A stretch of 64,000 nucleotides of DNA from Myxococcales bacterium. Lineage in GTDB: Bacteria; Myxococcota_A; UBA9042; JABWCM01; BTVJ01. Within the stretch, counting starts at the first letter, position 1; every line of letters starts with the position of its first letter. Position numbers and translations under genes: made by a program. The notes beneath the pieces were generated by a model. The model did not search any database and was not told the origin of the DNA. It saw only the letters and a program-made list of their open reading frames with translations. Shown one piece after another: positions 8,201-47,335 of this stretch. Location: NCBI GenBank assembly GCA_045863395.1, contig BTVJ01000029.1, positions 26,601-90,600 on the forward strand, read 5' to 3'.

Positions 8201-11200
8201 GTCATCGAGCTGGTCCTCCTGGAGGCGCGCCAGCGAGAGGATGAGGCCGTCGCGGAACGAGCCCGCTGGCTGAGCGCCGATCTGGTCTCGCAGGTGGGCG
8301 CCCAGGTCCTCCCACCGCCCCAGGGACTCCAAGAGGCGTCCGCGCGCCCTCAGCGATGAGTCATCGCCAGGATGCGCGCCGAGGACGCGGTCTACGACGG
8401 TCAGAGCCAGGTCGAGCTTCCCCAGGCGGTCCTCGTAGATCCCCGCCAGGGCGTAGAGCACCACGCGCTCCTGCTCCGGGTCCGCGAGCTCGGCCTTCCG
8501 GCGCAGGGCGGCCGCCGCCAGCTCCCAGCGCGCCGCATCGGTGGCGACGGCCTCCAGGGCCTCCAGGCTGTCCCAGGTGCGCCCCCGGCTCGCCGGATCC
8601 GCCGGCAGCGCCCGGAGGGCCTCGTCCCAGGCCTCGGGCGCCAGGGTGTCCATGAGCTCGGCCCAGCCGCCCGAGTCGGCGGCCAGCCCGATGAGCGCGC
8701 CGAGGGTCGCGGGGTCTCCGGGCCGGAGCGCCAGCGCGCGCTCCAGCGCCGCGCGGGCCTGCGCCTCGTCGCCGAGGCGGCTCCGGTGCAGCGCGGCGAT
8801 GTCCCGCAGCCCCTGGATCGCCTCGTCGAGGGTCGCCTCGCCGCCGTCCAGCGCGGCCTCGACCCGCAGCTCCTCCAGCAGAACCAGCTCCTCCGCGTCG
8901 GCCTCCAGGAGGGGGCGCAGCGCGGCGACCACCAGGGGGACGCTCCGGGGCCGGTCGGGCAGCGCGGGATCCTGGGCCATGGCGAGCAGCGCGTCCCGCG
9001 GAGCCGCGGCGCCGGGAACCGCCGCGGTGGCGGCCCGCAGGGCCAGGACGGCCCGCTCCACGTCGCTCAGGTGCTCCAGGAGGACGCCCGCAAGCTCCAA
9101 GTGGAGCCCGACCGTGTCCACCACGGCGGCATGGGCGATGCGGTGGCGGAGCAGCCCGGCCACGGCGTCCCAGTCCTCGGCGGCCCGCGCGAGGCGCAAG
9201 AGCTCGCCCACGATGTCGTCGTCGCCCCCATCCAGGGCCAGCGCCGCCTGGAGCAGCGCCGTGGCCTCGGCCGGCTGCTGCAGCTCGCTCTCCGCCACGG
9301 CAGCGGCCGAGCGCAGCAGCGCCTTGCGGCGGCGGCGCTCAGGCTCGATCTCGGCCTGCTTGCGCAGCACGAGGAGCAGGCACTCGTGATCACCGGTCTG
9401 GCGGTACAGGCGAGCCAGGGCAAGGAGCAGCTCGGGGTCGCTCGGCGTGTGCCCCAGGACCTCCTCGTAGCAGGCGATCGCGCCGTGGGCATCCCCGAGC
9501 CTGCGGTCCAGGATGTCGGCCTGGCGGCGAAGCAGCTCGAGGCGAGCCGGCTGGTCCTCCAGCGGGCGGGCGAGCGAGGCGTCGGCGACCCCGACGCCCG
9601 TGGCGGCCGCATACAGGGCGGCCAGAGGCGCCCAGAGGTCCGCGGCCTCCGCCGCCCGTGTCAAGCCACCCCACACGTCCGAGGACTCGGGGCGGTGCAG
9701 GAAGACCTCGCGGTGCAGATCGAAGGCCCGACCGGGGGCGTCCGCCTCGTGGAGCCGAGCAAGCTCCGCGAGCACGTCGAGGCGCACGTCCGGGTGCTCC
9801 TCCAGGGTCGCCCGCGTCTCCAGGGCGGCGAGGAGGGCGGCGGCGTCGCCGGTGCGCCGCGCGGCGGCCTCGAGGACCGTCGCCGCCTCCCGCTGCCTCA
9901 CCCCGCGGGCCACAAGCCCGGCCACGGCCGCCCGGGCGTCCACGTGGCCCGGGGCCTCCTCCAGCACGCGCGCCCACAGCGACAGCGCCCGCTCCGCCGA
10001 GCCCAGGTGGTCCCCGTGCAGCCGGCCCAGCTCCACCAGCAGCTCGTGGCGGTGCCCGAGATCCAGCTCGACGGCCACCGCGGCGGCGAGCAGCTCGGCC
10101 AGCTCCGCCCCCCTCCCCTGGCGCTCCAGCATGCGGCGCGCCCCCTCCAGCGCCGCCCGGTCCGCCGGGTCGAGCGCCCTGAGGCGCTGGTAGACCTCCA
10201 AGGCCCGGTCCGGGCGGTCCAGGAAGTCCTCGTACAGCTCGCCCAGGCGCAGGAGCCAGGTGCGGCTGTCGGGGCGCCCCTCCGCCGCGTGGACGCGCAG
10301 CCACAGCGTGCTCTCCAGGCGCCCCCAGTCGCTGCTCCGGATGGCGATCTCCTCCAGACCGGACAGCGCCTCGTCGCTGGTCGCGTCGATGGCAAGCGCC
10401 TGCTCGTAGAGCACCGCGGCCTCCTCCGGCCGCTGCATGCGCTCCCGGAGCACCCGCGCGTGGAGCAGCACGACCTGGAGGCGCGCGCCGTCTTGATCCC
10501 CGAGGAGCTCCGCGGCCTGGTGGCAAGCGGCGGCGAGGTCCTCGAAGCGGTCGGCCTCCTCGGCGAGGCTCACCAGGCGGAAGAGATCGCCCGCGCCGCC
10601 CTCCCGAGCCGCCGCCAGCACGGCGCGCACCGCCCAGGCAAAGGCGATGTCCGGCTCCCCGAGCCGCGCCCCGTGCAGCTCGACCAGGCGCTCCATCGCG
10701 CCGCGGGCCTCCGTCGGGTCGTCGGCGTGAGTCGCGATGACGGCCTGCACCTCCGCGAGCTTGCGCCAGGCCTTGCGCTCCTCGTAGCGCCGGGACAGGG
10801 CGCGGGCGGCCTGCACGTGGTCCGGCGCTGCCGCCAGGACCCCCTCCCAGCGCATCAGGGAGCGGCGAGGGTCATGGAGCTGATCATCGTAGAGGCGGGC
10901 CAGCTCGACGAGCATGTCGACGCGGTCCTCCGCGTCGCCCAGGTGTGCTGCGGCCTTCTCGATGACCGTGGCCCAGCCGCGCCAGTCGCCCCGGGCCGCG
11001 TGCTCGTCGCGCAGCTCCGCCCAGGAGCGGTCGTCCAGCGACAGGGCCTGGAGGCCGGCGCGAAGGTCGGCGCTGGCGGGCCTGGACTCCGCCAGCGCCT
11101 CCTGCGCCCGCGCCACGCCGCCCTCGTCGCCCAGACGCTCCTTGCGCAGCCGTGCCACCTCCTCCCACAGCGCGGCGCGCCGCTGCCGCGTGGGCGCGGT

Positions 11201-13399
11201 GCGGGCGCGGCGCTCCAGGATCCCGGCGAGCTCCTCCCAGCGCTCACCGGCCTCGTACAAGGTCGTCAGGGCCGACAGCGCCCGCTCGTTGTCCGGCTCC
11301 TCCGCCAGCACCTGCTCCCAGCAGCGGATGGCGGATTCCGGGTCCCCCATGCGGTCCCGGGCGAGGACCGCCAGCTCGACCAGGGCGGCGACGCGCTCCC
11401 GCCCGCGCAGCAGGTCCACCTCGCGGCCAAGCATGGCCACGAGCCCGCTGATGTCCTGCTGCGCCCGGTACACGCTCTTGAGGGATCGGATGGCGTCCAG
11501 GTCGTCGGGCGCCACCGCCAGCACGCCGAGCAGGTGGGGGACGGCGTCCACGGGACGCCCCAGGCGGCGCACGTACAGCGCGGCGAGGCGGCGCCGCGCG
11601 GCGAGGGCGTCGGCCGCCTCCGAGCTCCCCTCGATGCGCCGCTCCAGAGCGTCCGCCAGCTCGGTCCAACGGCCCGCGGCCTCCGCGCGGGCAGCGATCT
11701 CGTCGAGGAGGTCGAGCCTCGACGGCGTGATGGCGAGGACCCTCCAGAGGGTCTTGACCACCATCTCGTCCACCGGGAGGCGGGCTGGGTCACGGTAGAC
11801 GCCGGCGATCTCCTCGAGCAGGCGGACCTGCGTGTCGGGGTCGGCGCTCGCGATCCGCTCCTCGAGCAGCTCCAGCAGTGCGTGCCAGCGGCCCGCGCGT
11901 GCGAGGAGGGCCGTGAGCGTCGCCGCCACGTCCGCGGTGGGCTCCAGGGCGTACACGGCCCGCCACGCGTCGATGGCCTTGTCCGTCCCTTGGAGGTGCT
12001 CCTCCGCGAGGCGCGCTGCGCGGTGCGACAGCGCGAGCCTCTCTGCGGGCGTGTCCGCCAGCGCCGCGCGCTGCTCCACGGTGGCGACGGCGCGGCGCCA
12101 GTCCTGCCTCCGGGTGTACCAGTCGTCGTAGAATGCGAGGGCCACGGCGCTCTGGGCGTCGTTGCCGCGGATGCGCCGGAAGAGCCTCTCGGCCCCCTCG
12201 TGATCACCCAGGCGCAGCCATAGGACGCTCGCCATCTCCAGTTGGAGGGCGTGGTCCTCACGGCGACCCCGGGTGAGCGCCCGCTGGCGCTCCAGCGCGT
12301 CGACCAGGGCGCGCCAGTCCCCCTCGGCGCGAGCGACGGCGGCGAGTCCGGAGAGGGCCTCGGGGTCCGCCGGCTCGATGGCCAGCGCTGCACGCAGGTG
12401 CTCCCCCGCCTCACCCGGGCTGCCGGCCTGGAGCGCCAGGAGCCCGAGCCCCCGGTGCGCGCGCAGCAGCAGCGCGTCCTCCTCGGTGACCCGTAGGACG
12501 CCCTCCCAGACGCGGGCGAGGTCGTCGACGGCGTCGGCGCCGCGAAGCTCCCGCTCCAGGGCGTCCAGTGCCTCGACCGCCGCCGGCCCCGACGCGTCCT
12601 GGGCGATGGCCCCCTCCCAGGCGGCGCAGGCCTCCGCGCGCTCGTCGCGGCCAGGCTCCCCCCGCAGCAGCTCCGAGGCGAGCCGCACCAGGGCGCGCGC
12701 GCGGTCCGCCCCGAGCCTCGCGGCCTCCACCGCCTGGCGCAGCCCCTCGACGCGCCGCCGCCGCGCCGCGCTCAGGTCGCCGAGGCGCCCCTGCAGGGCC
12801 GCCGGTGCGTCGCCGGTCGCTCCCACCTCCTCGAGGAGCGCAGCAGCACGCCCCAGCGCCTCGTCGTCGATGGCCATGCCCGCGAGCCGCAGGAGCACCG
12901 CCCTCCGGTCCTCGGGCGTCGGCGCCACCTCCAGGCGGGCCTCGAGGAGCTCCCGGGCGAACGTGCGATCACCGATGCCCTCGACCAGCGCCAGCGCCTG
13001 ATCGAGCGCGCGCGGCTCCGGCACCGCGTGGAAGGCCTCGAGGTACCGGGCGGTCGCCTCCACGGGCCGGTTCAGGGGACCGGAGAGCAGGTCCCCGCAG
13101 CGGAGCAGCAGCGCGCTGGCAGTGGCAGGATCGCCGGACGCTCCGGCGTGGGACGCGAGCACGCGGGCGACGCGCTCCTGGAGCAGGGCGCGAGCCCCCT
13201 CGCCTGCGCCGCGGGCCAGCTCCTCGAAGACTCCGTAGAGCTGGTCCCAGTCGCCTCTCTGCCGGAGGGCCGCCTCGACCCGGTCGAGCCCCTCCAGGAC
13301 CTGCGCCCCCCCCGGATCCGCGCGGAGCGACCGGATCAGGTCCGCCAGATCGGGCAGGCCGTTGTGCTCGGACACGGGCACGCCAAGGGAGCCGCTCAT
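2210..13399 (-). CDS. Giant tetratricopeptide-repeat protein, 3729 aa (myxobacterial AgmK-like class)
   Basis: Repeating helical units (A...Y..VL..DP....AL..LE.LY....W..L) along the whole length; no signal peptide. Confidence 0.85.
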   Translation of the reverse strand: MSGSLGVPVSEHNGLPDLADLIRSLRADPGGAQVLEGLDRVEAALRQRGDWDQLYGVFEELARGAGEGARALLQERVARVLASHAGASGDPATASALLLRCGDLLSGPLNRPVEATARYLEAFHAVPEPRALDQALALVEGIGDRTFARELLEARLEVAPTPEDRRAVLLRLAGMAIDDEALGRAAALLEEVGATGDAPAALQGRLGDLSAARRRRVEGLRQAVEAARLGADRARALVRLASELLRGEPGRDERAEACAAWEGAIAQDASGPAAVEALDALERELRGADAVDDLARVWEGVLRVTEEDALLLRAHRGLGLLALQAGSPGEAGEHLRAALAIEPADPEALSGLAAVARAEGDWRALVDALERQRALTRGRREDHALQLEMASVLWLRLGDHEGAERLFRRIRGNDAQSAVALAFYDDWYTRRQDWRRAVATVEQRAALADTPAERLALSHRAARLAEEHLQGTDKAIDAWRAVYALEPTADVAATLTALLARAGRWHALLELLEERIASADPDTQVRLLEEIAGVYRDPARLPVDEMVVKTLWRVLAITPSRLDLLDEIAARAEAAGRWTELADALERRIEGSSEAADALAARRRLAALYVRRLGRPVDAVPHLLGVLAVAPDDLDAIRSLKSVYRAQQDISGLVAMLGREVDLLRGRERVAALVELAVLARDRMGDPESAIRCWEQVLAEEPDNERALSALTTLYEAGERWEELAGILERRARTAPTRQRRAALWEEVARLRKERLGDEGGVARAQEALAESRPASADLRAGLQALSLDDRSWAELRDEHAARGDWRGWATVIEKAAAHLGDAEDRVDMLVELARLYDDQLHDPRRSLMRWEGVLAAAPDHVQAARALSRRYEERKAWRKLAEVQAVIATHADDPTEARGAMERLVELHGARLGEPDIAFAWAVRAVLAAAREGGAGDLFRLVSLAEEADRFEDLAAACHQAAELLGDQDGARLQVVLLHARVLRERMQRPEEAAVLYEQALAIDATSDEALSGLEEIAIRSSDWGRLESTLWLRVHAAEGRPDSRTWLLRLGELYEDFLDRPDRALEVYQRLRALDPADRAALEGARRMLERQGRGAELAELLAAAVAVELDLGHRHELLVELGRLHGDHLGSAERALSLWARVLEEAPGHVDARAAVAGLVARGVRQREAATVLEAAARRTGDAAALLAALETRATLEEHPDVRLDVLAELARLHEADAPGRAFDLHREVFLHRPESSDVWGGLTRAAEAADLWAPLAALYAAATGVGVADASLARPLEDQPARLELLRRQADILDRRLGDAHGAIACYEEVLGHTPSDPELLLALARLYRQTGDHECLLLVLRKQAEIEPERRRRKALLRSAAAVAESELQQPAEATALLQAALALDGGDDDIVGELLRLARAAEDWDAVAGLLRHRIAHAAVVDTVGLHLELAGVLLEHLSDVERAVLALRAATAAVPGAAAPRDALLAMAQDPALPDRPRSVPLVVAALRPLLEADAEELVLLEELRVEAALDGGEATLDEAIQGLRDIAALHRSRLGDEAQARAALERALALRPGDPATLGALIGLAADSGGWAELMDTLAPEAWDEALRALPADPASRGRTWDSLEALEAVATDAARWELAAAALRRKAELADPEQERVVLYALAGIYEDRLGKLDLALTVVDRVLGAHPGDDSSLRARGRLLESLGRWEDLGAHLRDQIGAQPAGSFRDGLILSLARLQEDQLDDVTAALEGYREVAGQSSAPAGDAVRELWRLVNRDDVGWEASEALLEALEQRGDAEGLIELETVRGERFPEQADAVAGLRHAAHLAATRLGDPERAFELLALAFARQPGDDALWAELCAVAVAPSAGPRLLDLVAEARDRLDDAGQRAALAWQAARHVRDVLADGQTAAALLWLVVEDEPGNLAALEQLEDLHAGMDDWEKVLQVLERVVDATDDPAQRVAVLHQMGSLLQGALDRELEALELYERILQLDPSETDAYAQMEAIFARSEQWDDVARVLVRALDAVEPDPERQEEALRLKRRICEVLWEKRGEVDLALGFAGELVSQDPADPAAERVLRAMWAAGVEPERVGELLLAAHEGAGRWSEAVALLRERAEETADPGALDRVAAIQRDRLHDADGWFQAARDAARLAPTPARLDELERAARRRDAWSDLDKLYSAMLQEVASEELKLSIGLRLAELRERHLDDPAAAARAYLDVLGRNERDVQAALSLERLYRRLERWEDLVELFERMALISEAVGERVALYMKAVNLWDEFLGRPERAADDLRRVLEIDPGNKEARTRLERSLLRSADYVDLGDCYRAWIDAEPDPVAATETRFKLAFLLAEHLDDLAEALEQVRLLFESAPGYAAAVRWLESLLDRLPEGVDSQRPTVATLLEEQYGEETPWQRWARVIEAQLAHTDDSESRALLLLRLGELLRDRADDPESALQRMGEALALIPGDEGLEDEVAALATRSGLAAQLRDLWRGLADRVGDSDLQDRYLLRAAELSEELGDAAWALPLWGRLAERHPEHPRAQQALEAQLDLEGDDEALAGLLERRIEREQDPTALGDLHRRAAELRQSTGRSDLAADHLRALLALNPADLDASERLEAIASDEKDWVGLVAIYKDRLEHLEAPERRVEVLSRLAQIFERYLGRIDEAVGCYRAIFDLNPNNLYAVTSLERLYPVVEGWHELLDVLLVKRELFASPRDKIGINHAIGRLWQDHLGSPEKALDFYRVVVEWEPDHAPTLEALEDLVRDGDFHASLVIEPLYEGAQEWRKLVRLYAMQLPHFAEADERAALHVRAAEVWEHRLTEPDQAIISLAHALREDTASADVRAALCGVAERHGRWRTLVERVGELLDEAPELDPGRDATLWLARLAEQRAGDREEAIRRYRRVLDADELHPEAHAALERLLVAEERWSDLVDLLARRVAAAGASERQALRLGIAEVLLDRLRDADASLALLTELLSEDATRDKALQMLERLAGRHPEMREDVLAVLEPVYRRTERWDHMGKLLDLCIQATRDPVRRGELGEALGALTRDRLGRPEAAFDVWRRALVDDPNRAPSLLPVLSELAASLDRWGAFADALDQAVDAPQLMDVRLQHTLLLRSGEVRLERLGDVLGAERRLRHALELDPQSAAVLEALERLYEGAGRHADLVEICERRAELPLSFDEQRRLYGKLATAARALRDTDKAVSAYRRVLDLDGADAEALRMLELLYESSGDWASLATVLEREASVPGRPAGELVELRLRLARLREDRLHDPEGAMEAWEEVSELQPGNTDALGALERLYSSAELWEPLRAVLERKAQAATTDKARMGVWHALARLHERQLGDVEGAIEYNQRVFDLDRGSADAINELVRLYHKHARWRELAELYEAKIALTVRGPERNSLLVKSAELWERHLDEPDKAMDNLQEVLEHEPEHIYALRVLARLKERHGDWVDALEILEQLLPQLDDPDERLDVLVKIGRLQAEQGDDEEAALAAYTEVIALDPNHRGANEALRSLYARREKWTELVEVIQRQLQWAQTDKDKAALYREQALIWRDRFGRKDLFLKNIEKAYELRRDDPETVKAMLAFYEQVQDWEQVAPLLEWFVGYLEQRRLHQHVPKYAHQLGLVQEKLGLRDKALQSYARAYKQDATYFPNLLSYGRLLIRLGLFDQALVIYQAMQLQQHDAADDVKVEIFFNLGQICLKLGDTTKAKHYLQRLQRIDRNHAPTIAILERLEREG

Positions 13400-13509: not shown

Positions 13510-15039
13510 TCAGGAGTCCAGCAGGCCCTTCAGGTGCCGCTGGTCGTGAGCCGCCCGCATGGCCACCTCCCGTGAGATCCGCCCGGCACGGACCAGGTCC
13601 GCCAGGGAGCGGTCCATGGGCACCATCCCCTCCTCGCGGCCGGTCTGGATCTGGGAGTTGATCTGGTGGTTCTTGTGCTCACGAATCAGGTTTGCGATCG
13701 CGTAGTTGACCTTCAGGATCTCAATCGCCGGCACACGCTTCCGGGGCGTGGAGCTCGGCAGCAGACGCTGGGTGACGACCCCTCGCAGGACGTCGGCGAG
13801 CTGGGTGCGGATCTGGGACTGCTGGTACTCCGGGAACACGTCCACGATGCGATCGATGGCCATGGTCGCGCTGCCGCTGTGGAGCGTGGAGAGCACCAGG
13901 TGGCCGGTCTCTGCGGCGGTGATGGCGGCCGAGATGGTGTCCAGGTCCCGCATCTCGCCGACCAGGATCACGTCCGGGCTCTCCCGCAGCGCGGAGCGGA
14001 GCCCGGTGGCGAAGGAGTCGACGTGGATCCCCACCTCCCGCTGATGGACCACGCTGCGCTTGCGCTTGTAGAGGTACTCGATGGGGTCCTCGAGCGTGAT
14101 GATGTGCCGCGCCCGCGTCCTGTTGATGTGCTCGATGAGCACGGCGAGGGTCGTCGACTTGCCGCTCCCCGTGGGGCCCGTCAGCAAGACGAGTCCATGG
14201 GGCAGCTCCGCCAGCTCCCGGATGGACTCGGGCAGGTTGAGCTGCTCCAGGGTGGGCACGTCGTCCCAGATGGGGCGGAAGGCCGCAGCGAGCCCGCCTA
14301 TCTGCCGGAACACGTTCACCCGGAACCGGCGCCCGCGCTCACTGCCCGGCTCCCGCAGCTCATAGGCCAGATCCACGTTGCCGGTGCGCTCGAGCTCCGC
14401 CCTGCGCGGCGCCGTGAGGACCGAGGCAAGAGAGCCGAGGATCTGCTCGTCCGTGAACCGGGTGCCAGGGATCTCCGTAACCTCTCCGGTCATGCGCATG
14501 GCGGCGTTGTAGCCGGTGGACACGATTAGATCGGAGGCGTGCTCCAGGACCACCCGCCACAGGAGCTCCTCGAGCGCGGTCGAGGCGATTGGCTCAATCG
14601 GTGCGAGCCGGTCCCCGCAGAGAGGCACCGGTCGCTCAGCCTCGGCGGCCGCCACCGGGCGCTCGCCCATCGGGGCGAGGGCACCCGCCGGAGGGGTCGC
14701 GGGCTCCCCGCTGGGGCTGGGCTCGACCGGCGCGCCGTTGCCTGGCCGGAAGGACACGCTCAGCCCCTCGCCGGCGGTCTGGGCGGCGACCTGGAACAGC
14801 CCGGCGCGCTCCGAGCGGTAGACCGACCGTAGGACACCCGCACCGCGCAGCTCCTCCATGGCCTCGTCGCCGACCACCTCCGCCAGGAACTTGGCGATCA
14901 GGTCAGAGCCCAGAGGGGGCATGGACAGCGCCCGCGCCGCGCCGCCGAAGATGAGCGCGGGCGGCCGCTGGGGCTCCAGGCGGAGGCCGTCGGCGCGCTG
15001 GGAGTCGATGAACTTGAGCAGGGCGTCTACAGCGGCCAT
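13510..15039 (-). CDS. pilT: PilT-family retraction ATPase with a duplicated N-terminal domain
   Basis: GPTGSGKST, TLEDPIE, ILVGEMRD, STLH, AIANLIRE; GGGAG before ATG 15039. Confidence 0.88.
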   Translation of the reverse strand: MAAVDALLKFIDSQRADGLRLEPQRPPALIFGGAARALSMPPLGSDLIAKFLAEVVGDEAMEELRGAGVLRSVYRSERAGLFQVAAQTAGEGLSVSFRPGNGAPVEPSPSGEPATPPAGALAPMGERPVAAAEAERPVPLCGDRLAPIEPIASTALEELLWRVVLEHASDLIVSTGYNAAMRMTGEVTEIPGTRFTDEQILGSLASVLTAPRRAELERTGNVDLAYELREPGSERGRRFRVNVFRQIGGLAAAFRPIWDDVPTLEQLNLPESIRELAELPHGLVLLTGPTGSGKSTTLAVLIEHINRTRARHIITLEDPIEYLYKRKRSVVHQREVGIHVDSFATGLRSALRESPDVILVGEMRDLDTISAAITAAETGHLVLSTLHSGSATMAIDRIVDVFPEYQQSQIRTQLADVLRGVVTQRLLPSSTPRKRVPAIEILKVNYAIANLIREHKNHQINSQIQTGREEGMVPMDRSLADLVRAGRISREVAMRAAHDQRHLKGLLDS

Positions 15040-15081
15040 GATCTCCCTGGGGACTGGTTCAGAACACGGCAGGGTGGTGGC

Positions 15082-16032
15082 ATGAGCAGGGATACTACAC
15101 CAACCATCGCCCGGGCGCTCCTCGCGTTGCTGGTGGGGCTTGGGAGCTGCGCGACGGGCAGACCGGAGCGCGCAGCCTATGACGCGCTCGTCCCGGCCTT
15201 CGCGGACGGCCAGCGCATCGTGGACGTGGCGACCGGCCGACCCCTCGCCGCCGAGGAGGCCGTCTCTCGCCTCCTCGAGGCGCGCGTGATCTACATCGGG
15301 GAGGAGGCGCCCATTCCCTGGCACCGGGAGGTGGCGGCGCAGATCGTGGGGGAGCTTGCCGCGCGGGACCCCGGCCTGCGGGTCGCCCTCGCGGCGGTCC
15401 CGGCGAGCGCGCAGCGGCTGCTCGACGGGTGGCTGGACGGTGCCGTGGACGACGCGACGCTGTCCATCGCAATACGGGGCTCTGGTTCCGAAATCGATGT
15501 CTTTGCGGGGTTGCAGCCTGTCTTGTCGCTGTGCAGGCGCGCGAAGGTCCCCATCCTCGCGGTGGGGCCCGATCCCGCCCTCGTGGATGCTGCGCTCCGC
15601 GGCGATGGAGCGCCACCGGAGCGCCCTGATGAGTGGGCCGACCTCGTCCGTCACCGGGTGGAGGCCCACGGCCAGGCATCGGGTCCGGCCGCGGAGCGTC
15701 AGGTGGCCGCCTGGGCCGTGCGCGCGGCCGCGGTCCAGAGCCACGTGGCGGGGGCGACGGGGCGCCTCGTGGTGTTGGCAGAGCACGTCCTCGTCGACCG
15801 GGGCCTCGGCGTCCCCCTCCCCGTCTTCGCGGCCAACCGCGCGTCGTTCCGGGTCGTGCTCCCCGTGACCCGGGGCCACCTGCGCCGCCACGACGGGTCG
15901 CTGGGGCGCCTCGCGTTTCCGGACAAGCGCGCGGATCTGCTGTGGGAGTCGCCGACGGACCCCCACCGGCGCGGTGGACCCGCCCCGGATGAGGCCAACC
16001 GTGGCGTCCTTCGCCGTCGATTGAATTCCTGA
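15082..16032 (+). CDS. ChaN-like lipoprotein with degenerate motifs
   Basis: Lipobox LGSC; RIVD..TG...LLEARVIYIGE pattern. Confidence 0.6.
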   Translation: MSRDTTPTIARALLALLVGLGSCATGRPERAAYDALVPAFADGQRIVDVATGRPLAAEEAVSRLLEARVIYIGEEAPIPWHREVAAQIVGELAARDPGLRVALAAVPASAQRLLDGWLDGAVDDATLSIAIRGSGSEIDVFAGLQPVLSLCRRAKVPILAVGPDPALVDAALRGDGAPPERPDEWADLVRHRVEAHGQASGPAAERQVAAWAVRAAAVQSHVAGATGRLVVLAEHVLVDRGLGVPLPVFAANRASFRVVLPVTRGHLRRHDGSLGRLAFPDKRADLLWESPTDPHRRGGPAPDEANRGVLRRRLNS

Positions 16033-40024: not shown

Positions 40025-40219
40025 CTGGACCTCTCCGTGTCGCGCGGCGCCCGACCGCCCCGCTGGCCGCCTCATAGCACGACTCCACGCCACGTCAAAG
40101 CGAGACCTCAGGCCCGTTCACTCCCCATGCGAGTCCGGGTGCGCGGACGGTTGCGCTTCGAGATGGACTGGGCCTATCCTTGGCCGCACTTTGACACGAC
40201 CAGACACCGAGGCGAGCAA

Positions 40220-42175
40220 ATGGAGATCGTCGACTTCCTGAGGCGGGTCAACCTGTTCACGGGGCTCCCACCGCAAGTGTTGGAGCAGATCTCCCGCATC
40301 ACGGTGCCAAACACCGTGCCGGCGGGGCACGTGCTCTTCTACGAGGGCGAGCCGGGGGACGCGCTGTACATCGTTGGCGCGGGGTCCATCGAGGTCTACC
40401 TGACGGACCGGGACACGGGGGTGGACATCCCGCTGCGCCGCTTCAAGCCCTCCGAGTACCTGGGAGAGATGGCGCTGATCGCGGAGGAGCCGCGCTCGGC
40501 ATCCGCGCGCGCCGTCTCGGAGTCGACGGTGCTCGTGCTGACGCGGGAGGCCTTCCTGCGCATCGTCGCGCACGTGCCCGCCGTGGGCCTCGCGCTGGCG
40601 CAGGAGCTGTCCCGGCGGCTGCGCGAGTCCAACAAGCGCCAGGGGGTGAGCTTCGTCGACCTGTCGCGCTACCGTTTCGATGGGGCGGCCTACGCTCTCG
40701 TACCGCGCCGCATCCTGGAGATGCACCGCTGCATCCCGCTGCGACGCACCGACGAGGTCCTGACGGTCGCCATGGTGGACGCGGCGGACCTCGTCGCCAT
40801 GGACGACCTGCGCCGTGGCTCCGGGGGCCTGACCATCGAGCCCCTGGCCGTCACGCTGGAGGACTACGAGGCCTTCCTGCAGAAGCACGTGGGGCGGCTC
40901 CCGCCCGCGGCGGTGCAGCGGGCCGAGCGCAAGGCTCAGCTCCCGTTCAAGTACGCCGGGTTTGGCGACGACGGGGCGCCGGAGCTGCGACGAAGAGACG
41001 CGCTCGGGACCGACATCGTACAGATGCTCGACGGCGTCCTCGGCGAGGCCATCGATCACGGCGCCAGCGACGTGCACATCGAGCCTCGCGCGGACCGGCT
41101 GGAGATCCGCTACCGGGTGGACGGGCGCCTGCGCCGGCGCACGCCGCCGTCCTCGCCCGAGCTGGCGGCGCCCCTGGTGAGCCGCGTCAAGGTGCTCGCA
41201 AAGATGGACATCTCCGAGAACCGGCTGCCGCAGGACGGCCGCTTCACCGCACACCGAGGGCGGCAGAAGGTGGACTTCCGCGTGTCCACCCTGCCGAGCA
41301 TGTATGGCGAGAAGGCGGTGCTCCGGGTGCTCGACCCGGCCATGCTCACCACCGGCCTCGACACCATCATCATGGCGACCCGCGTGTGCGAGATGGCCCG
41401 CGAGATGGTGCGTCAGCCCTTCGGGCTCGTGCTCGCGACCGGGCCCACGAGCAGCGGCAAGACCACCACGCTGTACTCGCTGCTCAACGAGATTGACCGA
41501 GAGACGCGCAACGTGGTCACGGTCGAGGACCCCATCGAGTACGACGTGGGCAACACGACCCAGACCCAGGTCAACTACGCGATCAAGCTGGGCTTCTCGG
41601 ACATGGTGCGGTCCATCCTGCGGCAGAACCCCGACGTGGTGCTGATCGGGGAGACCCGGGACCCCGCGACCGCCGAGGCGACCATCGAGGCGGCGCTCAC
41701 GGGGCACCTCGTGCTGTCGAGCATGCACACCAACGACGCGGTCGGGACCATCGCGCGGCTCATGGACATGGGCATCGAGCCCTTCCTGATCGCCAGCTCC
41801 CTCATCGGCGTGCTCAACCAGCGGCTCGTGCGGCGCATCTGCACCGGCTGCCGCGAGGTGGTGGAGCTGGAGCCGCGCCGCGCCGAGCTGCTGCGGGAGG
41901 CCATCGGGCCCGACTACCGCGTGGAGAAGGTCTACGAGGGGCGGGGCTGCGACGCGTGCTTCGGCAGCGGCTACCGGGGCCAGGTGGCGGCCTTCGAGGT
42001 CCTGCGGGTGACGGACACCCTGAAGCAGCTCATCTCGTCGCGGGCCTCGCTGGTCGAGCTCCGGGCGGCGGCGGTGACTGGCGGGCTCGTGCCCATGCGC
42101 GCCTACGCCGGCTTCCTGGTGGCCCGCGGGTTGACCACGTCGGTCGAGGCAATCCGCATCCTGAGCTCCGAGTGA
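40220..42175 (+). CDS. cNMP-binding domain fused to a PilB/GspE-family assembly ATPase
   Basis: LFYEGEPGD.LY, GEMAL...PRSASA; ASDVHIEP, RLPQDGR, GPTSSGKTTT, VEDPIE, LRQNPD...GETRD, CxxC...CxxC. Confidence 0.9.
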   Translation: MEIVDFLRRVNLFTGLPPQVLEQISRITVPNTVPAGHVLFYEGEPGDALYIVGAGSIEVYLTDRDTGVDIPLRRFKPSEYLGEMALIAEEPRSASARAVSESTVLVLTREAFLRIVAHVPAVGLALAQELSRRLRESNKRQGVSFVDLSRYRFDGAAYALVPRRILEMHRCIPLRRTDEVLTVAMVDAADLVAMDDLRRGSGGLTIEPLAVTLEDYEAFLQKHVGRLPPAAVQRAERKAQLPFKYAGFGDDGAPELRRRDALGTDIVQMLDGVLGEAIDHGASDVHIEPRADRLEIRYRVDGRLRRRTPPSSPELAAPLVSRVKVLAKMDISENRLPQDGRFTAHRGRQKVDFRVSTLPSMYGEKAVLRVLDPAMLTTGLDTIIMATRVCEMAREMVRQPFGLVLATGPTSSGKTTTLYSLLNEIDRETRNVVTVEDPIEYDVGNTTQTQVNYAIKLGFSDMVRSILRQNPDVVLIGETRDPATAEATIEAALTGHLVLSSMHTNDAVGTIARLMDMGIEPFLIASSLIGVLNQRLVRRICTGCREVVELEPRRAELLREAIGPDYRVEKVYEGRGCDACFGSGYRGQVAAFEVLRVTDTLKQLISSRASLVELRAAAVTGGLVPMRAYAGFLVARGLTTSVEAIRILSSE

Positions 42176-42189
42176 CACGGGAGGTCCTC

Positions 42190-43062
42190 ATGTGGCGCCT
42201 TGTATGTGCAGGAATTCTGGCGGTCTCGGCGGCGGCCCCCGCTGCTGCGTCTCCGGGCCAAAAGACAGTGTTTACCGGGTGTGGTGCCCCGTCACCCGCT
42301 CGCGAGGAGCCGCTGCCGCTCCCCGAGCCCGCAGTCGGGATCTCTCGCGACCGGCCGCCCGCGCTGCCGCCGCTGCTGGAGGGGCCGGCGCCGGCCAGCG
42401 TGACGGTGACCGTGCGCAACCGGGGGAGCGCGACCCTCAAGACCCACCTGGAGGTGTCGTTCTGCCGCTTCGGCGGCGCGTGCGACACCAAAGGGGCGCG
42501 GGTGCTCGGGTCCGGTGGCGTGTGGCCCATGGGGCCGGGTGACGAGCGGGTCGCCGTGGTCACCTCGAAGCCCCTGGACTGGGGGACCTGGGTGGTGCAC
42601 GTGGCGCTCGTCCAGGACAGCGCCGTGCTCGACAGGTGGTCCGGGCGCATCCGCGTCGGCGAGCCCAAGCTCGTGCTGGAGGGCGTGCGGACACCTGGGC
42701 GCGGCGGTTCGGCGCCCTGGGACGGCGGCCCCGTCACCCTCGACGTCCTGGTCGGCAACCAGGGCAACGCACCGGACCAGGCCCAGGTCGCGTTCGTCGT
42801 GTCCTCGGTGCTCGGAGTGAGCTCCTGCGTCACCGAGATCTATGCGGCTCCGGTGGAGATCCCTGCCGGCGCCACCCGCGTCCCCGTCGCGGTGACGTGG
42901 CAGCCGCCGCTGGGGGGCCCGAAGTCGGTCACCGTTCGGCTCTTCGACGCTGGCGGGCAGGAGCGGGGGGTCTCCGTGGCCAACCGCTTCTCGTTGTCCC
43001 TGGACGCGGGGGCGCAGGTACAGTCGGACGTGCGCTGCCCGCCAGCGCACGTGGCCCGGTGA
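42190..43062 (+). CDS. Secreted protein with two Ig-like (CARDB-like) domains
   Basis: GGGAGG RBS; signal peptide; VTVRNRGS and VLVGNQGN strand motifs. Confidence 0.65.
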   Translation: MWRLVCAGILAVSAAAPAAASPGQKTVFTGCGAPSPAREEPLPLPEPAVGISRDRPPALPPLLEGPAPASVTVTVRNRGSATLKTHLEVSFCRFGGACDTKGARVLGSGGVWPMGPGDERVAVVTSKPLDWGTWVVHVALVQDSAVLDRWSGRIRVGEPKLVLEGVRTPGRGGSAPWDGGPVTLDVLVGNQGNAPDQAQVAFVVSSVLGVSSCVTEIYAAPVEIPAGATRVPVAVTWQPPLGGPKSVTVRLFDAGGQERGVSVANRFSLSLDAGAQVQSDVRCPPAHVAR

Positions 43063-43886
43063 CCGCGGTGCGCGTCCACCACCTCAACTGCGGCACCATG
43101 CGCCCGATCGGCGGGCGCCTCGTGTCGGGGCAGCCAGGCGTGGCGGGGCACATGGTCTGCCACTGCCTGCTCATCGAGACGGACGCCGGCCTCGTGCTCG
43201 TGGACAGCGGCCTGGGCCTCGGCGACATCGACGCCGCCAACGAGCGCCTGGGCCGGCTCTTCGTGAAGGCGCTGCGCCCGGCGCTCGACCCCGAGGAGAC
43301 CGCCGTCCGCCAGGTGCAACGCCTCGGCTACTCCGCCGACGACGTGCGGCACGTGGTGCTCACGCACCTGGACCTGGACCACGCGGGCGGGCTCGGCGAC
43401 TTCCCCAAGGCGAAGGTCCACGTGCTGCTCGCAGAACACGAGGCGGCCACCAACCCCAGGCTCAAGGAGCGCGCCCGGTATCGGGCGGCCCAGTGGCGCC
43501 ACGGCCCCCGGTGGGTGCTCTACCGCCACGATCAGGGCGAACCCTGGTTCGGCTTCCAGGCGGTGCGCGCCTTGGACGGTCTCCCCGACGACCTGTTGAT
43601 GGTCCCGTTGCTCGGCCACACCCGAGGCCACGCCGGCGTCGCCGTGCGCAGCCCGGAGGGGTGGCTCCTGCATGGGGGCGACGCGTGGTTCAGCCACCAC
43701 GAGGTGGGCCCCGAGCCCCACCGCTGCCCCTCTGCCCTGCGGACGTTCCAGACGCTGGTGCAGATGGACGGGCGGCTCCGCCACCAGAACCAGGAGCGCC
43801 TGCGCGTGCTGGTGCGCGACCACGGCGAGGAGGTGCGGGTGTTCAGCGCCCACGACCCCTTCGAGCTGGAGGCCGCCCTGCCCTAG
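43059..43886 (+). CDS. Metallo-beta-lactamase-fold hydrolase
   Basis: HHLNCG, LVDSG, THLDLDHAGG, GHTRGH, GDA, SAHD; GTG overlaps the upstream stop codon. Confidence 0.9.
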   Translation: MTAVRVHHLNCGTMRPIGGRLVSGQPGVAGHMVCHCLLIETDAGLVLVDSGLGLGDIDAANERLGRLFVKALRPALDPEETAVRQVQRLGYSADDVRHVVLTHLDLDHAGGLGDFPKAKVHVLLAEHEAATNPRLKERARYRAAQWRHGPRWVLYRHDQGEPWFGFQAVRALDGLPDDLLMVPLLGHTRGHAGVAVRSPEGWLLHGGDAWFSHHEVGPEPHRCPSALRTFQTLVQMDGRLRHQNQERLRVLVRDHGEEVRVFSAHDPFELEAALP

Positions 43887-46800
43887 AGCCCCGCGAGGGC
43901 CTCCTCGGCGCGCGCCCGGTCCCCCTCCATGCCCAGCTTGCCGAAGAGGTCGCGAGCGCGGCTCAGGTGGGCACGGGCCCTGGCGCGCAGCGCGCCGTCG
44001 CCGCCCTGGGGGACGCGGAGCAGAGACGCCGCGAAGTGGTAGAGCGACTTGCCGAGGAGCACCTCGCTGCCGAGGCTCGTGAACAGGGCCTCTGCGCGGT
44101 GCAGGTGGGCCTCGGCATCTTCCAGCGCGCCCCCCTCCGCGAGGGTCACCTGCCCGAGGAAGCGCTCCGCCTCCGCCGCAAAGCTCTTCTCGCCGGTCTC
44201 CTGCGCCATCGCGAGGGCCCGCTCGCCGCACTCCCTGGCGCCGGCGACGTCGCCGCCGTGCAGGCGCACCTCCCCGAGGAGCCGCCAGGTGTCACTGACC
44301 TGGTTGCGCACCCCGAGCACGCTGCAGAGGGTGATGGAGCGCTCCAGCGGCTCGACCGCCTCCTCGCGGCGATCCAGCTCCAGCAGCAGCTCCCCGAGGT
44401 TGTTGTGGCACATGCGCGCCGTGTGGAGGTCGCCGAGGCGCTCGGCGCCCTTCCGCGTGCGGTCGTAGGCCTCGATGGCCTTGTCCGCCTCGCCGCGCAG
44501 GTTGTGGAGGTTGCCCTGCATCAGCGTCATGCGGCCGGTGAGCAGCTCGTCCCCGAGGGACCTCGCGATGCCGAGGGCCTCGCTGACGCACCGCTGGGAC
44601 GCCTCCAGCTCGCCGCGGCGGATGCGCACCATGGAGAGGGTGCGCAGGGTCTGCGCCCGCAGCCGAGCGCCGGGGCGGGCGCGCAGGGCCTCCTCGCACC
44701 GCTGGAGCGCCGGCTCGTAGTCGCCGCGATAGAACGAGGCGCGGCCCAGCAGCTCCAAGGCGCGGGCGCGCACGTCCCCGCCGGCGAGGTCCACGACCAG
44801 CGACAGGGCGGCCTGCCCCTCACGCCGCGCCGCCTCCAGGTCGCCGCGACGCACCTGGACGTCGCCGAGCCCACACCGCAGGGCCGCCCGCTCCTCGGGG
44901 GTCGCCGCGGCGGCATCGCACAGGGCCAGCGCCCGCTCGAAGGCCGCCGTCGCGTCGTCGTAGGCGGCGGCCAGATCGCCCACCTCGCCCATGCTCTGGA
45001 GCAGCGCGAGCTGAGAGCGCGCGTCCACCTGGTCGGCGGCCGTCTCCAGCAGGGCCACCGCCGCACGCAGCAGCTCCAGCGCCTCGCCGTTGGCGTACTG
45101 CGCGCGGGCCCTCTCCGCGGCCGCCGCGTAGGCGCGCAGGGCGTCGGAGGGACGCCCCGCCCGCTCCAGGTGGAGGGCGTAGCGCGGGAAGGTGCGCGCG
45201 CGATCCGGGCCGACGGCGCCCTCCAGCCACTCGGCGGCCTGGGCGTGCATGGGGCGGCGGTCCCGATGGAGGATGCGGTCGTAGACCACCTCGTGGAGCA
45301 GCGCGTTGCGGAACTGGAGCTCCTCGTCGCCGGGGACCGCCGTCGCCTCCCGCCCCACGCACAGGTCGCGGTCCCGCAGCGAGTCGACGGCCTGCGCGAC
45401 GTCCTTGCCCGCCAGGCGCGCCACGGCGCCGGACCAGAACACACGGCCGACGACCGCCGCAGCCTGGAGCACGGCGCGCTCCGCCCGCGGGAGCGCGTCG
45501 ACGCGCGACTGGATCAGCCCATGGATGGACGCCGGGATGTCGAGGTGCTCCGCCCAGTCGTCGGCCAGCGTCCATGGTTCGCCGCCACCGCGGCGCAGGA
45601 CCCCGGTCTCCAGCATGACCTTGACCAGCTCCTCCAGGTAGTAGGGGTTGCCGCCGGCGCGCCCCACCACCGCGTCCACGAGCGCGGGGGGAACCCGCTC
45701 GACCCGGTGGAGGATCAGGAGCAGCAGCTCGGACGCGGCCTCCTCCGTGAGCGGGCGCACGTCGATGCGGAGCTGGTGGGCCTTGTCCGCCCACAGGCGC
45801 CGCCGCTCGAAGAGCTCGGGGCGGGAGAGGCAGAGCAGCAGGACCGGCAGCTCCAGCGTGGCCCCCAGGTGATCGATGAAGTCCAGCACGGCGTCCGGCG
45901 CCCAGTGGATGTCCTCACAGACCACGATGGTGGGGCCCGAGGCTGCGCGCCGCTCCAGCAGGACGCGCGTCGCACGGAGCGCGCGGGCGAGCTGGAGCTC
46001 CCGCTCGGCCGGATCCTCCGGCGACACGCCGCCCAGGAGCAGGGCGAGGGCCTGCGCGTCCGTCCCGGCGGCGCCCGCGGCCTCCGCCCGATCTGCGAGC
46101 ACGTCGGCCGCCGGATCGTCCAGCAGATCGTTGGCCAGGTCGCGCAACAGGTTCAGGGGGGCGCCGGACCCGGGCGGCAGCACCCGCCCCTTGAGCAGGT
46201 TCAGGGCCGGCTCCCCTCGCACCCAGCGCAGGGAGGCCTCCGCCACCAGGCGGCTCTTGCCGATGCCGCCCTGCCCGGTCACGGTGACCACGCGCGCCCT
46301 CCCCTCGCGCTGCACGGCGGCGTAGCACTCCTGGAGGGCCCGCAGCTCCTGCTCGCGGCCTACCATGGGCACGTCGATGCCCTCGATGCCGCGCATGCCG
46401 AGCGCGCTCGGCCGCAGGCGCTCCTGGACGGCCCGGTACACGCGCAGGGGCTTGTCCTTGCCCTTGACCTTGATCGGGGGCAGCTCCACCAGCTCGAACC
46501 AGCCGCGCACGGCCAGGTACGTGTCGTGGCTGATGAGCACGGTCCCCGTCTCTGCCGCGTGCTCCAGCCGCGACGCGGTGTTCACCGTGTCCCCGTAGAT
46601 GGTGAAGTCCTTGTGGCCCTCGCCGCCCACGAGGCCCGCCAGGACCTTCCCGGTGTTGAGGCCGATGCGCATGGAGAGGGTCAGCCCGTGCCGCTGCTCC
46701 AGCTCGCGGGAGAAGGCCCCGAGGGCGGCCAGCATGCCCAGCGCCGCCCGGACGGCCTGGGGCGCGTCGTCCTCGTGGGCGACTGGCACGCCGAAGTAGG

Positions 46801-47335
46801 CCATGACCGCGTCGCCGATGTACTTGTCGATGGTGCCGCCGCGGCTGACTATCTCGCGGGTCAGCCGCTCGAAGCACTGGTCCATGATGTCGCGGACCTG
46901 CTCCGGGTCGAGCCGCTCGCTCATGGCCGTGAAGCCCGAGACGTCGGCGAAGAGCACGGTGACGAGCTTGCGCTCCTCCTCGGCGGCGGGGAGCTCATCA
47001 CGCGGCGGAGCCGGTGGGGGCGCGGTGCGTGGCGCCCGCGCGGCGGTGACGAGCGGCGCGGGGCGCTCCGGGGGCGCGCCGTGCACTGCCGTGCCGCAGG
47101 AGGCGCAGAACCGATCCGAGGGACGCAGCATCGCCTCACAGGCGCAGCACTGGTCCGGCCCCGGCGGGCGCGGCAGGCGGGATCCGCACGCGGCGCAGAA
47201 GCGGGCTCCCGGGCGCCCCTGGTGGCCGCACGCGGTGCAGTCGCACCAGGCGACTGCGAGCTCGCCGCCGCAGGCCTCGCACCAGGCGGATCCAGCCGGA
47301 TTGTCGTGGGAACAGGCGGTGCACTTCGTGTCCAT
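43883..47335 (-). CDS. Class III adenylate/guanylate cyclase with zinc ribbons, P-loop ATPase and TPR domains
   Basis: Six CxxC; LFADVSGFT, DKYIGDAVMA, GDTVNTASRLE; GQGGIGKS; EDIHWA; GGNPYYLEE; C-terminal TPRs. Confidence 0.93.
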   Translation of the reverse strand: MDTKCTACSHDNPAGSAWCEACGGELAVAWCDCTACGHQGRPGARFCAACGSRLPRPPGPDQCCACEAMLRPSDRFCASCGTAVHGAPPERPAPLVTAARAPRTAPPPAPPRDELPAAEEERKLVTVLFADVSGFTAMSERLDPEQVRDIMDQCFERLTREIVSRGGTIDKYIGDAVMAYFGVPVAHEDDAPQAVRAALGMLAALGAFSRELEQRHGLTLSMRIGLNTGKVLAGLVGGEGHKDFTIYGDTVNTASRLEHAAETGTVLISHDTYLAVRGWFELVELPPIKVKGKDKPLRVYRAVQERLRPSALGMRGIEGIDVPMVGREQELRALQECYAAVQREGRARVVTVTGQGGIGKSRLVAEASLRWVRGEPALNLLKGRVLPPGSGAPLNLLRDLANDLLDDPAADVLADRAEAAGAAGTDAQALALLLGGVSPEDPAERELQLARALRATRVLLERRAASGPTIVVCEDIHWAPDAVLDFIDHLGATLELPVLLLCLSRPELFERRRLWADKAHQLRIDVRPLTEEAASELLLLILHRVERVPPALVDAVVGRAGGNPYYLEELVKVMLETGVLRRGGGEPWTLADDWAEHLDIPASIHGLIQSRVDALPRAERAVLQAAAVVGRVFWSGAVARLAGKDVAQAVDSLRDRDLCVGREATAVPGDEELQFRNALLHEVVYDRILHRDRRPMHAQAAEWLEGAVGPDRARTFPRYALHLERAGRPSDALRAYAAAAERARAQYANGEALELLRAAVALLETAADQVDARSQLALLQSMGEVGDLAAAYDDATAAFERALALCDAAAATPEERAALRCGLGDVQVRRGDLEAARREGQAALSLVVDLAGGDVRARALELLGRASFYRGDYEPALQRCEEALRARPGARLRAQTLRTLSMVRIRRGELEASQRCVSEALGIARSLGDELLTGRMTLMQGNLHNLRGEADKAIEAYDRTRKGAERLGDLHTARMCHNNLGELLLELDRREEAVEPLERSITLCSVLGVRNQVSDTWRLLGEVRLHGGDVAGARECGERALAMAQETGEKSFAAEAERFLGQVTLAEGGALEDAEAHLHRAEALFTSLGSEVLLGKSLYHFAASLLRVPQGGDGALRARARAHLSRARDLFGKLGMEGDRARAEEALAGL

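Follow-up and report, generated by a model that had tools for sequence, protein, structure and literature searches.

Here we describe a gene (P0001) in a 64,000-nucleotide stretch of DNA from a Myxococcales bacterium (GenBank assembly GCA_045863395.1, contig BTVJ01000029.1, positions 26,601 to 90,600 of the forward strand; below, the window). Its product joins a cyclic-nucleotide-binding (CNB) domain, the alpha/beta subdomain of MshEN (MshEN_C, also called N1D or ND1) and a PilB-type secretion ATPase, and is a candidate for a pilus motor that responds to cyclic AMP (cAMP). The gene and its parts are as follows.

40220..42175, plus strand: CNB-N1D-PilB-type ATPase gene (P0001), ATG at 40220 to TGA at 42175, 651 amino acids, no internal stops
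40209..40212, plus strand: Shine-Dalgarno-like GAGG, 7 bases 5' of the ATG, putative ribosome-binding site
40220..40639, plus strand: CNB domain (PF00027), residues 1-140, ending in a long C-helix (residues 120-140)
40463..40501, plus strand: phosphate-binding cassette, G82-E83...R92-S93-A94
40640..40894, plus strand: MshEN_C/N1D (ND1) alpha/beta subdomain (PF05157), residues 141-225, predicted PilM/GspL-docking part
40895..41005, plus strand: flexible linker, residues 226-262 (pLDDT below 50 for 226-259)
41006..42172, plus strand: N2D and RecA-like ATPase core (PF00437)
41441-41464, plus strand: Walker A GPTSSGKT, residues 408-415
41519-41542, plus strand: Asp box TVEDPIEY
41633-41653, plus strand: Walker B, with E478 as its Glu
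41705-41728, plus strand: His box, H496/H503
41840-41851 and 41948-41959, plus strand: tetracysteine, C541/C544/C577/C580

All three domains exceed their Pfam cut-offs: cNMP_binding at residues 32-117 (76.1 bits, cut-off 27.5), MshEN at residues 142-225 (56.1 bits, cut-off 23.1; the PF05157 model represents the C-terminal alpha/beta subdomain of MshEN) and T2SSE at residues 266-645 (378.1 bits, cut-off 24.9). The phosphate-binding cassette reads G82-E83-M-A-L...P91-R92-S93-A94 and follows the G-E...R-S/T-A pattern, and the N2D arginines are present alongside Walker A, the Asp box, the Walker B Glu, the His box and the tetracysteine. The AlphaFold model for the full-length protein (pLDDT 78.7) best matches Thermus PilF (5oiu) and Geobacter PilB (5tsh) in Foldseek, with TM scores by target of 0.88-0.90. 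Modelled separately, residues 1-233 (pLDDT 94.3) resemble CRP-family CNB domains, e.g. that of Thermus CRP (4ev0; VIA Z 20.6, root-mean-square deviation 1.6, 133 residues). The N-terminal domain thus belongs to the CRP-type CNB domains by score, fold and cassette, and the protein belongs to the broad PilB/GspE (PulE-type) secretion ATPase family by domain, fold, motifs and N1D. The initial annotation, made from the letters and their translation alone, had described an intact cNMP domain with its phosphate-binding cassette, a segment like the C-terminal half of MshEN and a complete PilB/GspE ATPase with tetracysteine, and the profile scores and models agree with it on each of these. A scan of the locus for promoters and terminators found nothing, and a contig from an RNA library tells nothing of expression, because its coverage is even for genes of either strand and its source may be DNA.

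Binding of cyclic di-GMP (c-di-GMP) by proteins of the MshE type sits in MshEN_N (residues 1-64), which precedes MshEN_C, according to Wang et al. (PMC5013675). Inspection of the 651-residue protein finds no RLGxxL-type c-di-GMP motif anywhere in it, as had been noted, and the relaxed MshEN pattern (Wang 2016, PMC5013675) matches 0/82 CNB-ATPases screened. Where an MshEN_N helical bundle with RLGxxL...Q would lie, residues 1-140 adopt the CNB fold instead. The C-helix of the CNB domain leads straight into N1D, and the join coincides with the MshEN_N/MshEN_C boundary: KRQGVSFVDL aligns with KQYGVPSINL of the Geobacter and Myxococcus PilB proteins, where their N-terminal helical bundle ends, and with QYGVSFVDL of a CNB-free relative.

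To trace the ancestry of this arrangement, 61 ATPase domains were placed in an IQ-TREE phylogeny, built by quick search and with SH-aLRT supports only. The query lies inside a 20-row CNB clade (SH-aLRT 100), which is nested in a 34-row group (SH-aLRT 98) together with cyanobacterial PilB1, Melainabacteria-type PilB1 and six CNB-PilB proteins, two of them from Acidobacteriota. Common to this group are L..L(I/V) in place of L..LG and a C-terminal Tyr. The cyanobacterial and Melainabacteria PilB1 proteins, which are the nearest CNB-free relatives, start with an MshEN_N-type bundle, and because they retain it the exchange of MshEN_N for a CNB domain is supported, though not proven; the structure supports it and the ancestry makes it likely. 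Two points weigh on the other side. Grouping the CNB clade with the PilB proteins of Deltaproteobacteria instead costs 24 log units but is not rejected by the approximately unbiased (AU) test (p = 0.077). Moreover, the full relaxed c-di-GMP motif is found in one of 23 sister proteins inspected and an RLG start in two more, most of the motifs being degenerate, and since so many are degenerate the ancestor of the CNB clade may never have bound c-di-GMP. The proposal in the initial annotation that the sensor had been swapped is therefore upheld as to the position of the junction, while its ancestry is not decisive. The CNB domain was acquired repeatedly in the IQ-TREE tree, in which P0198, P0246 and the PilT-type forms branch away from the main CNB clade. 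A single origin of all CNB-ATPases is not supported: the group with tandem CNB domains joins the main clade in FastTree, but not in IQ-TREE.

Relatives were collected with profiles built from the query, and the sets therefore lean towards intact, query-like members. A search with the N-terminal part gives eight full-length relatives among 120 listed of 192 matches, and G, E, R, S and A of the phosphate-binding cassette are all retained in the query and its eight closest relatives. Among 158 proteins examined (the best 150 from a 50%-identity library plus seeds), 88 have both CNB and ATPase, 62 with a single and 26 with a double CNB domain; G-E...R is retained in 43/62 single forms vs 2/52 domains of the double forms. 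Further searching brought the distinct single-CNB PilB-type proteins to 114, of which 91 keep G-E...R. The Walker K, Asp-box E, Walker B E and second His are all retained in 111/114, and in 89/114 together with the cassette; the tetracysteine is kept in 112-113/114. In close relatives the CNB domain (74-89% identity) is as conserved as the ATPase (76-92%), and the linker is the least conserved part (22-62%). The initial annotation had also pointed to Walker A, GPTSSGKT rather than the usual GPTGSGKT. The reading is correct and still fits GxxxxGK[ST]; because position 4 is Ser in 6/114 members vs Gly in 108/114, the sequences point to a local variant of little weight rather than a family trait, and the idea that it has a special meaning was dropped.

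The combination of cNMP, MshEN and T2SSE domains forms a large family, mostly from Myxococcota. The ESM Atlas holds four such clusters (1307, 339, 169 and 57 members), in which Myxococcota is the commonest phylum. The taxa in the Atlas, together with gene order, suggest that the host of the window itself belongs to Myxococcota. Named members of the family include some from metagenome-assembled genomes of Deltaproteobacteria and Planctomycetes. Among the best 80 of at least 606 candidates in a genome scan, five are CNB fusions, including those from Polyangiaceae, Terriglobia and another member of the Acidobacteriota; the best 80 loci of a metagenome scan are ordinary ATPases (36-49% identity). 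Three further architectures were seen. P0168, P0177, P0179, P0188 and about 20 more are ATPases of about 890-910 residues with a tandem (CNB-N1D)2 head. P0026, P0028, P0031, P0033 and P0036, one of them named Candidatus Hydrogenedens, have a full MshEN, a long linker and a C-terminal CNB domain, and no ATPase. P0125-P0160 and P0291-P0334 are proteins of about 1000 residues with tandem PilB-type ATPase domains, two of them named Candidatus Moraniibacteriota.

The CNB-N1D unit (hereafter the cassette) is mobile: it caps PilB-, PilT- and TadA-type ATPases or stands alone. A CNB+N1D profile is matched over its full length in at least 64/301 genomes of the phylum, that of the window included, a lower bound with nine candidates scored per genome. 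The 84 loci fetched yield 80 cassette genes, comprising 26 complete PilB-type, 45 PilT-type and nine others, namely three PilB-type genes cut at contig ends, five stand-alone genes and one CNB-N1D-FHA-TadA-like gene. Two of the PilT-type proteins pass TIGR01420. By genome, the 68 carriers (five of them from a separate genome set) have PilT-type forms only (33), PilB-type forms only (20), both (11), stand-alone genes only (3) or PilB- and TadA-type forms (1); the window's genome has the PilB-type form only. The cassette tree divides by ATPase class (support 100). The phosphate-binding residues are intact in 34/45 PilT-type and 5/5 stand-alone genes, and in 10/26 complete PilB-type genes of relatives.

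Several of these loci deserve individual description. L062 (G293:C8:69000-85000) encodes CNB-N1D-PilT followed by CNB-N1D-PilB on one strand (4131-10625); the two genes face a gene for a prepilin and two small CNB genes that stand alone, and this is the only locus seen in which the cassette is linked to a pilin. In L121 (G041:C54, 5654-7831, minus strand) the cassette sits on a Tad-type motor, CNB-N1D-FHA-TadA/CpaF-like. The stand-alone CNB-N1D proteins (L027, L059, L081, L123 and L093; about 240-280 residues) are encoded near a cyclase-domain gene in two cases and beside a Ser/Thr kinase in three. In L021 (G032:C139, 6336-11245) a CNB-N1D-PilT gene converges on an operon of dCache-HAMP-cyclase and two small CNB genes, and L070 has a similar cyclase and two CNB genes near its CNB-PilT gene.

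In the window the ATPase gene is flanked by a divergent gene for a beta-propeller protein and by three genes on its 3' side, and no pilC, pilin or secretin gene was found in its flanks, as had been stated. The 3' neighbours are as follows.

42190..43062, plus strand: exported 290-residue protein with predicted Ig/CARDB-like domains, after a 14-base gap
43059..43886, plus strand: metallo-beta-lactamase-fold hydrolase (PF00753), overlapping the stop of the preceding gene
43883..47335, minus strand: convergent zinc ribbon-class III cyclase-AAA-TPR gene (PF00211), with intact adenylate-type K/T/N/R residues

The exported protein has no Pfam match and no homologue elsewhere in the genome, and finds only leads of 0.89-0.90 in the Atlas; its gene is possibly co-transcribed with the ATPase gene. 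The signature residues K/T/N/R of the cyclase are those of the adenylate type, and Lys at the purine-selecting position marks adenylate cyclases. This cyclase is a possible source of cAMP for the ATPase, and the adjacency is not conserved. A conserved operon with the exported protein, the hydrolase or the cyclase was rejected: the other cassette loci contain no homologue of the exported protein or the hydrolase, and among 83 cassette loci a cyclase occurs in four and other CNB genes in four. Ser/Thr kinases (11) and GGDEF-type genes (5) are also found in these 83 loci, counts that come without a background control, and the recurring neighbours mostly reflect lineage synteny, e.g. glycine cleavage/folD in 10 loci. 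Elsewhere in the window, positions 13510-15966 (minus strand) encode an ATPase of the PilT/PilU family that exceeds the TIGR01420 cut-off and has 818 residues, among them a long extension at the N-terminus. Its gene lies immediately upstream of that for a 3729-residue TPR protein (2210-13399), and a receiver gene is divergently oriented to it.

The host genome (8.77 Mb, 97% complete, 186 contigs) encodes a canonical type IV pilus system, with a pilB-pilT-pilC-pilS/R-pilA region at C1:355-365 kb (pilB-pilT-pilC at 361-365 kb), pilM at C1:138.4-139.5 kb, pilQ and minor pilins. A full type II secretion system (T2SS) lies at C26:22-37 kb, with a PilM-like GspL (32.9-33.8 kb) and its own gspE, whose product retains the RLG motif. 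Two further PilB-like and several PilT-like ATPases are present. The gene in the window is an orphan, encoded neither with pilT/pilC nor in a gspD-E-F operon. The genome also gives nine cyclase-domain and 22 CNB matches; of the eight cyclase domains read, two are degenerate and six have Lys, none of them Glu, at the purine-selecting position. The window gene is therefore a paralogue additional to those of the canonical pilus and T2SS clusters, and the cyclase and CNB genes make cAMP signalling plausible in this cell. Other genes of related type include a fusion of a long protein of helical repeats (HEAT-like by eye) with a PilT-like ATPase, which a second PilT-like gene follows (C83:19860-24483, plus strand), a class III cyclase and CNB domain in one open frame (C27:73142-76009, plus strand), and a PilQ of about 1500 residues preceded by a further orphan PilB-like ATPase (C1:196343-203024, minus strand), some 58 kb from pilM. 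The N-termini encoded by two pilA genes, at C1:355 kb and C4:152 kb, are nearly identical.

We propose, with a probability of about 0.5, that the protein is an accessory extension motor of the type IVa pilus whose docking to PilM is switched by cAMP. The ATPase is predicted to form a PilB-like hexamer that hydrolyses ATP. Binding of cAMP to the CNB domain would move its C-helix and, because this helix passes directly into N1D, would reposition N1D, exposing or stabilising the PilM-docking face. Once docked, the hexamer would act on PilC in trans, either together with the house PilB or in its place, and the PilT-type proteins with the same cassette would act as the matching retraction motors. 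Direct control of the motor by cAMP or cGMP, as put forward in the initial annotation, is a prediction that fits the conserved phosphate-binding residues. ND1/MshEN_C is described as the surface that binds EpsL/GspL in the EpsE-EpsL and GspE-GspL crystals, with a PilM contact inferred from these (PMC8389850, PMC11656802), and the same sources say that N1D tells extension from retraction ATPases. An N1D profile matches 10 sequences in the PDB, all of pilus ATPases (PilF, PilB and MshE; best E 2e-17); no T2SS N1 domain is among these 10, though the protein may still bind GspL.

Several observations weigh against this proposal. The genome has a house PilB, beside which the window gene is an extra orphan paralogue, and the protein misses the NCBIfam equivalog thresholds for both PilB (TIGR02538, 444.4 vs 675.65) and GspE (TIGR02533, 455.5 vs 630.25). 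The phosphate-binding cassette is degenerate in 23/114 single-CNB PilB-type proteins and in 16/26 complete PilB-type genes of relatives, and in the tandem form 50/52 domains lack G-E...R, the first cassette having a conserved degenerate motif of its own. No genomic tie connects the cassette gene to the pilus, since the 84 fetched cassette loci contain no pilC or secretin gene and a pilin gene in one only. In favour of the proposal, a PilM orthologue is encoded elsewhere in 68/68 carrier genomes searched, but this discriminates little because PilM is probably near-universal in the phylum. The direction of the switch, on by cAMP, is predicted by analogy with MshE only.

A possible, though rather unlikely, alternative is that the protein is a cAMP-responsive regulator and not a free-standing motor, which would form mixed hexamers with PilB, occupy PilM and so block the house motor, or pass a signal on, in the way that M. 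xanthus PilB signals to exopolysaccharide. The gene is always an orphan, and the cassette without an ATPase occurs in five genes of three genomes; as all five have intact phosphate-binding residues, the cassette can act without a motor. The near-universal retention of the catalytic residues (111/114) and tetracysteine in the family argues instead for selection on motor activity.

Slightly less probable is that the CNB domain no longer reports cAMP, and either binds another ligand (cGMP, cUMP/cCMP or something else) or has replaced MshEN_N as a dimerising or protein-contact domain. The phosphate-binding cassette is often lost across whole subclades, and the fold leaves the ligand unfixed, because cAMP-, cGMP- and cUMP-bound domains score alike, the cUMP-bound PycTIR CNB domain and cGMP-bound domains lying within 1-2 VIA Z of the CRP matches. 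This is countered by the five residues kept in the query and its closest eight relatives, and by the adenylate-type appearance of the genome's intact cyclases.

More doubtful still is an alternative, cAMP-gated GspE that docks GspL and times the secretion of hydrolytic enzymes. The protein scores slightly higher as GspE than as PilB (455.5 vs 444.4), the genome encodes a complete T2SS whose GspL is PilM-like, the next gene encodes an exported protein, and Vibrio GspE/EpsE is likewise described with the N1D subdomain only (PMC8389850). The tree nevertheless places the query with PilB1 and not with GspE, its N1D best matches pilus ATPases, a second PilM-like (GspL) match is confined to roughly half of the 68 carriers, and the cassette also caps PilT-type ATPases. 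We know of no T2SS with PilT-type ATPases.

An assembly chimera or decaying gene can be set aside: nothing in the 186-contig assembly was found to support it, and contigs from other runs cross both domain joins without gaps (X6, 40203-42417; X8, 40201-46926; X14, 40478-41569), the whole architecture recurs in four relatives (74-88% identity) within a family of more than 100 members, and all strain differences inside the gene (10/10) are synonymous, in source runs labelled as sludge, wastewater, bioreactor and aquatic metagenomes. The join, for which the initial annotation had asked whether reads would expose a chimera, is thus genuine.

The cAMP-switched accessory motor may be part of a wider arrangement. 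It is tentatively suggested that CNB-N1D is a portable, cAMP-gated PilM-docking cassette, which in many uncultured Myxococcota-type bacteria equips a second motor set (extension, retraction and, once, Tad) and free-standing decoys; if so, cAMP would choose the motor that occupies the pilus. To our knowledge, direct second-messenger control has so far been limited to c-di-GMP acting on extension motors and has never been known for PilT. The PilT-type cassette fusions contradict the rule that retraction ATPases lack N1D. As a soluble unit of 230 residues, found fused, in tandem or alone, the cassette opens two questions to ordinary biochemistry: whether cAMP directly gates a pilus motor, and whether sensors at this position act via the docking of N1D on PilM.

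A full-text search, with most subscription papers outside its scope, found no publication on the N-terminal CNB-N1D-ATPase architecture. The closest systems described are MshE (Vibrio cholerae), PilB (M. xanthus), PilB2 (C. perfringens) and PilF (Thermus) (PMC5013675, PMC11656802), which likewise consist of a PilB/GspE core with MshEN_C/N1D. In MshE and MshEN-bearing PilB the second-messenger sensor lies directly N-terminal to N1D, as here, but is a four-helix MshEN_N with RLGxxL, whereas the window protein has a CRP-like CNB domain and is an orphan extra paralogue. Desulfotalea psychrophila DP2226 (MshEN-T2SSE-cNMPbind; Supplementary Table 4, PMC5013675) also combines a cNMP domain with a PilB/GspE ATPase; there the cNMP domain is C-terminal and the full MshEN is retained, whereas here the order is cNMP-MshEN_C-ATPase and MshEN_N is replaced. 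DP2226 figures there as a table entry only, and the table gives a C-terminal cNMP fusion but no N-terminal one. GAF-MshEN-T2SSE (Glov_1971) and REC-MshEN-T2SSE (Gmet_3473) likewise carry an N-terminal sensor on a pilus/secretion ATPase, of another type and listed as added before MshEN (PMC5013675).

The cyanobacterial and Melainabacteria PilB1 proteins share L..L(I/V), the C-terminal Tyr and the QYGV-FVDL junction with the window protein, but have no CNB domain, carry an MshEN_N bundle and usually end in zinc ribbons at the C-terminus, and in cyanobacterial loci the gene directly precedes pilT. Acinetobacter baylyi TfpB sets the precedent that one type IVa pilus can be served by two distinct extension motors, of which it is the second; its description mentions no CNB domain (PMC11656802), and the window protein falls far below the TfpB threshold (NF053534, 389.4 vs 850). 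For pilus motors, the direct second-messenger control described is that by c-di-GMP, which acts on extension ATPases at their N-domain; cAMP is described as acting via transcription (PMC11656802). In P. aeruginosa, Pil-Chp, CyaB and Vfr bring a cAMP input to pili via a CNB domain, as is proposed here (PMC11656802), but in Vfr-type control cAMP works on transcription, whereas in the window protein the CNB domain is part of the motor polypeptide itself.

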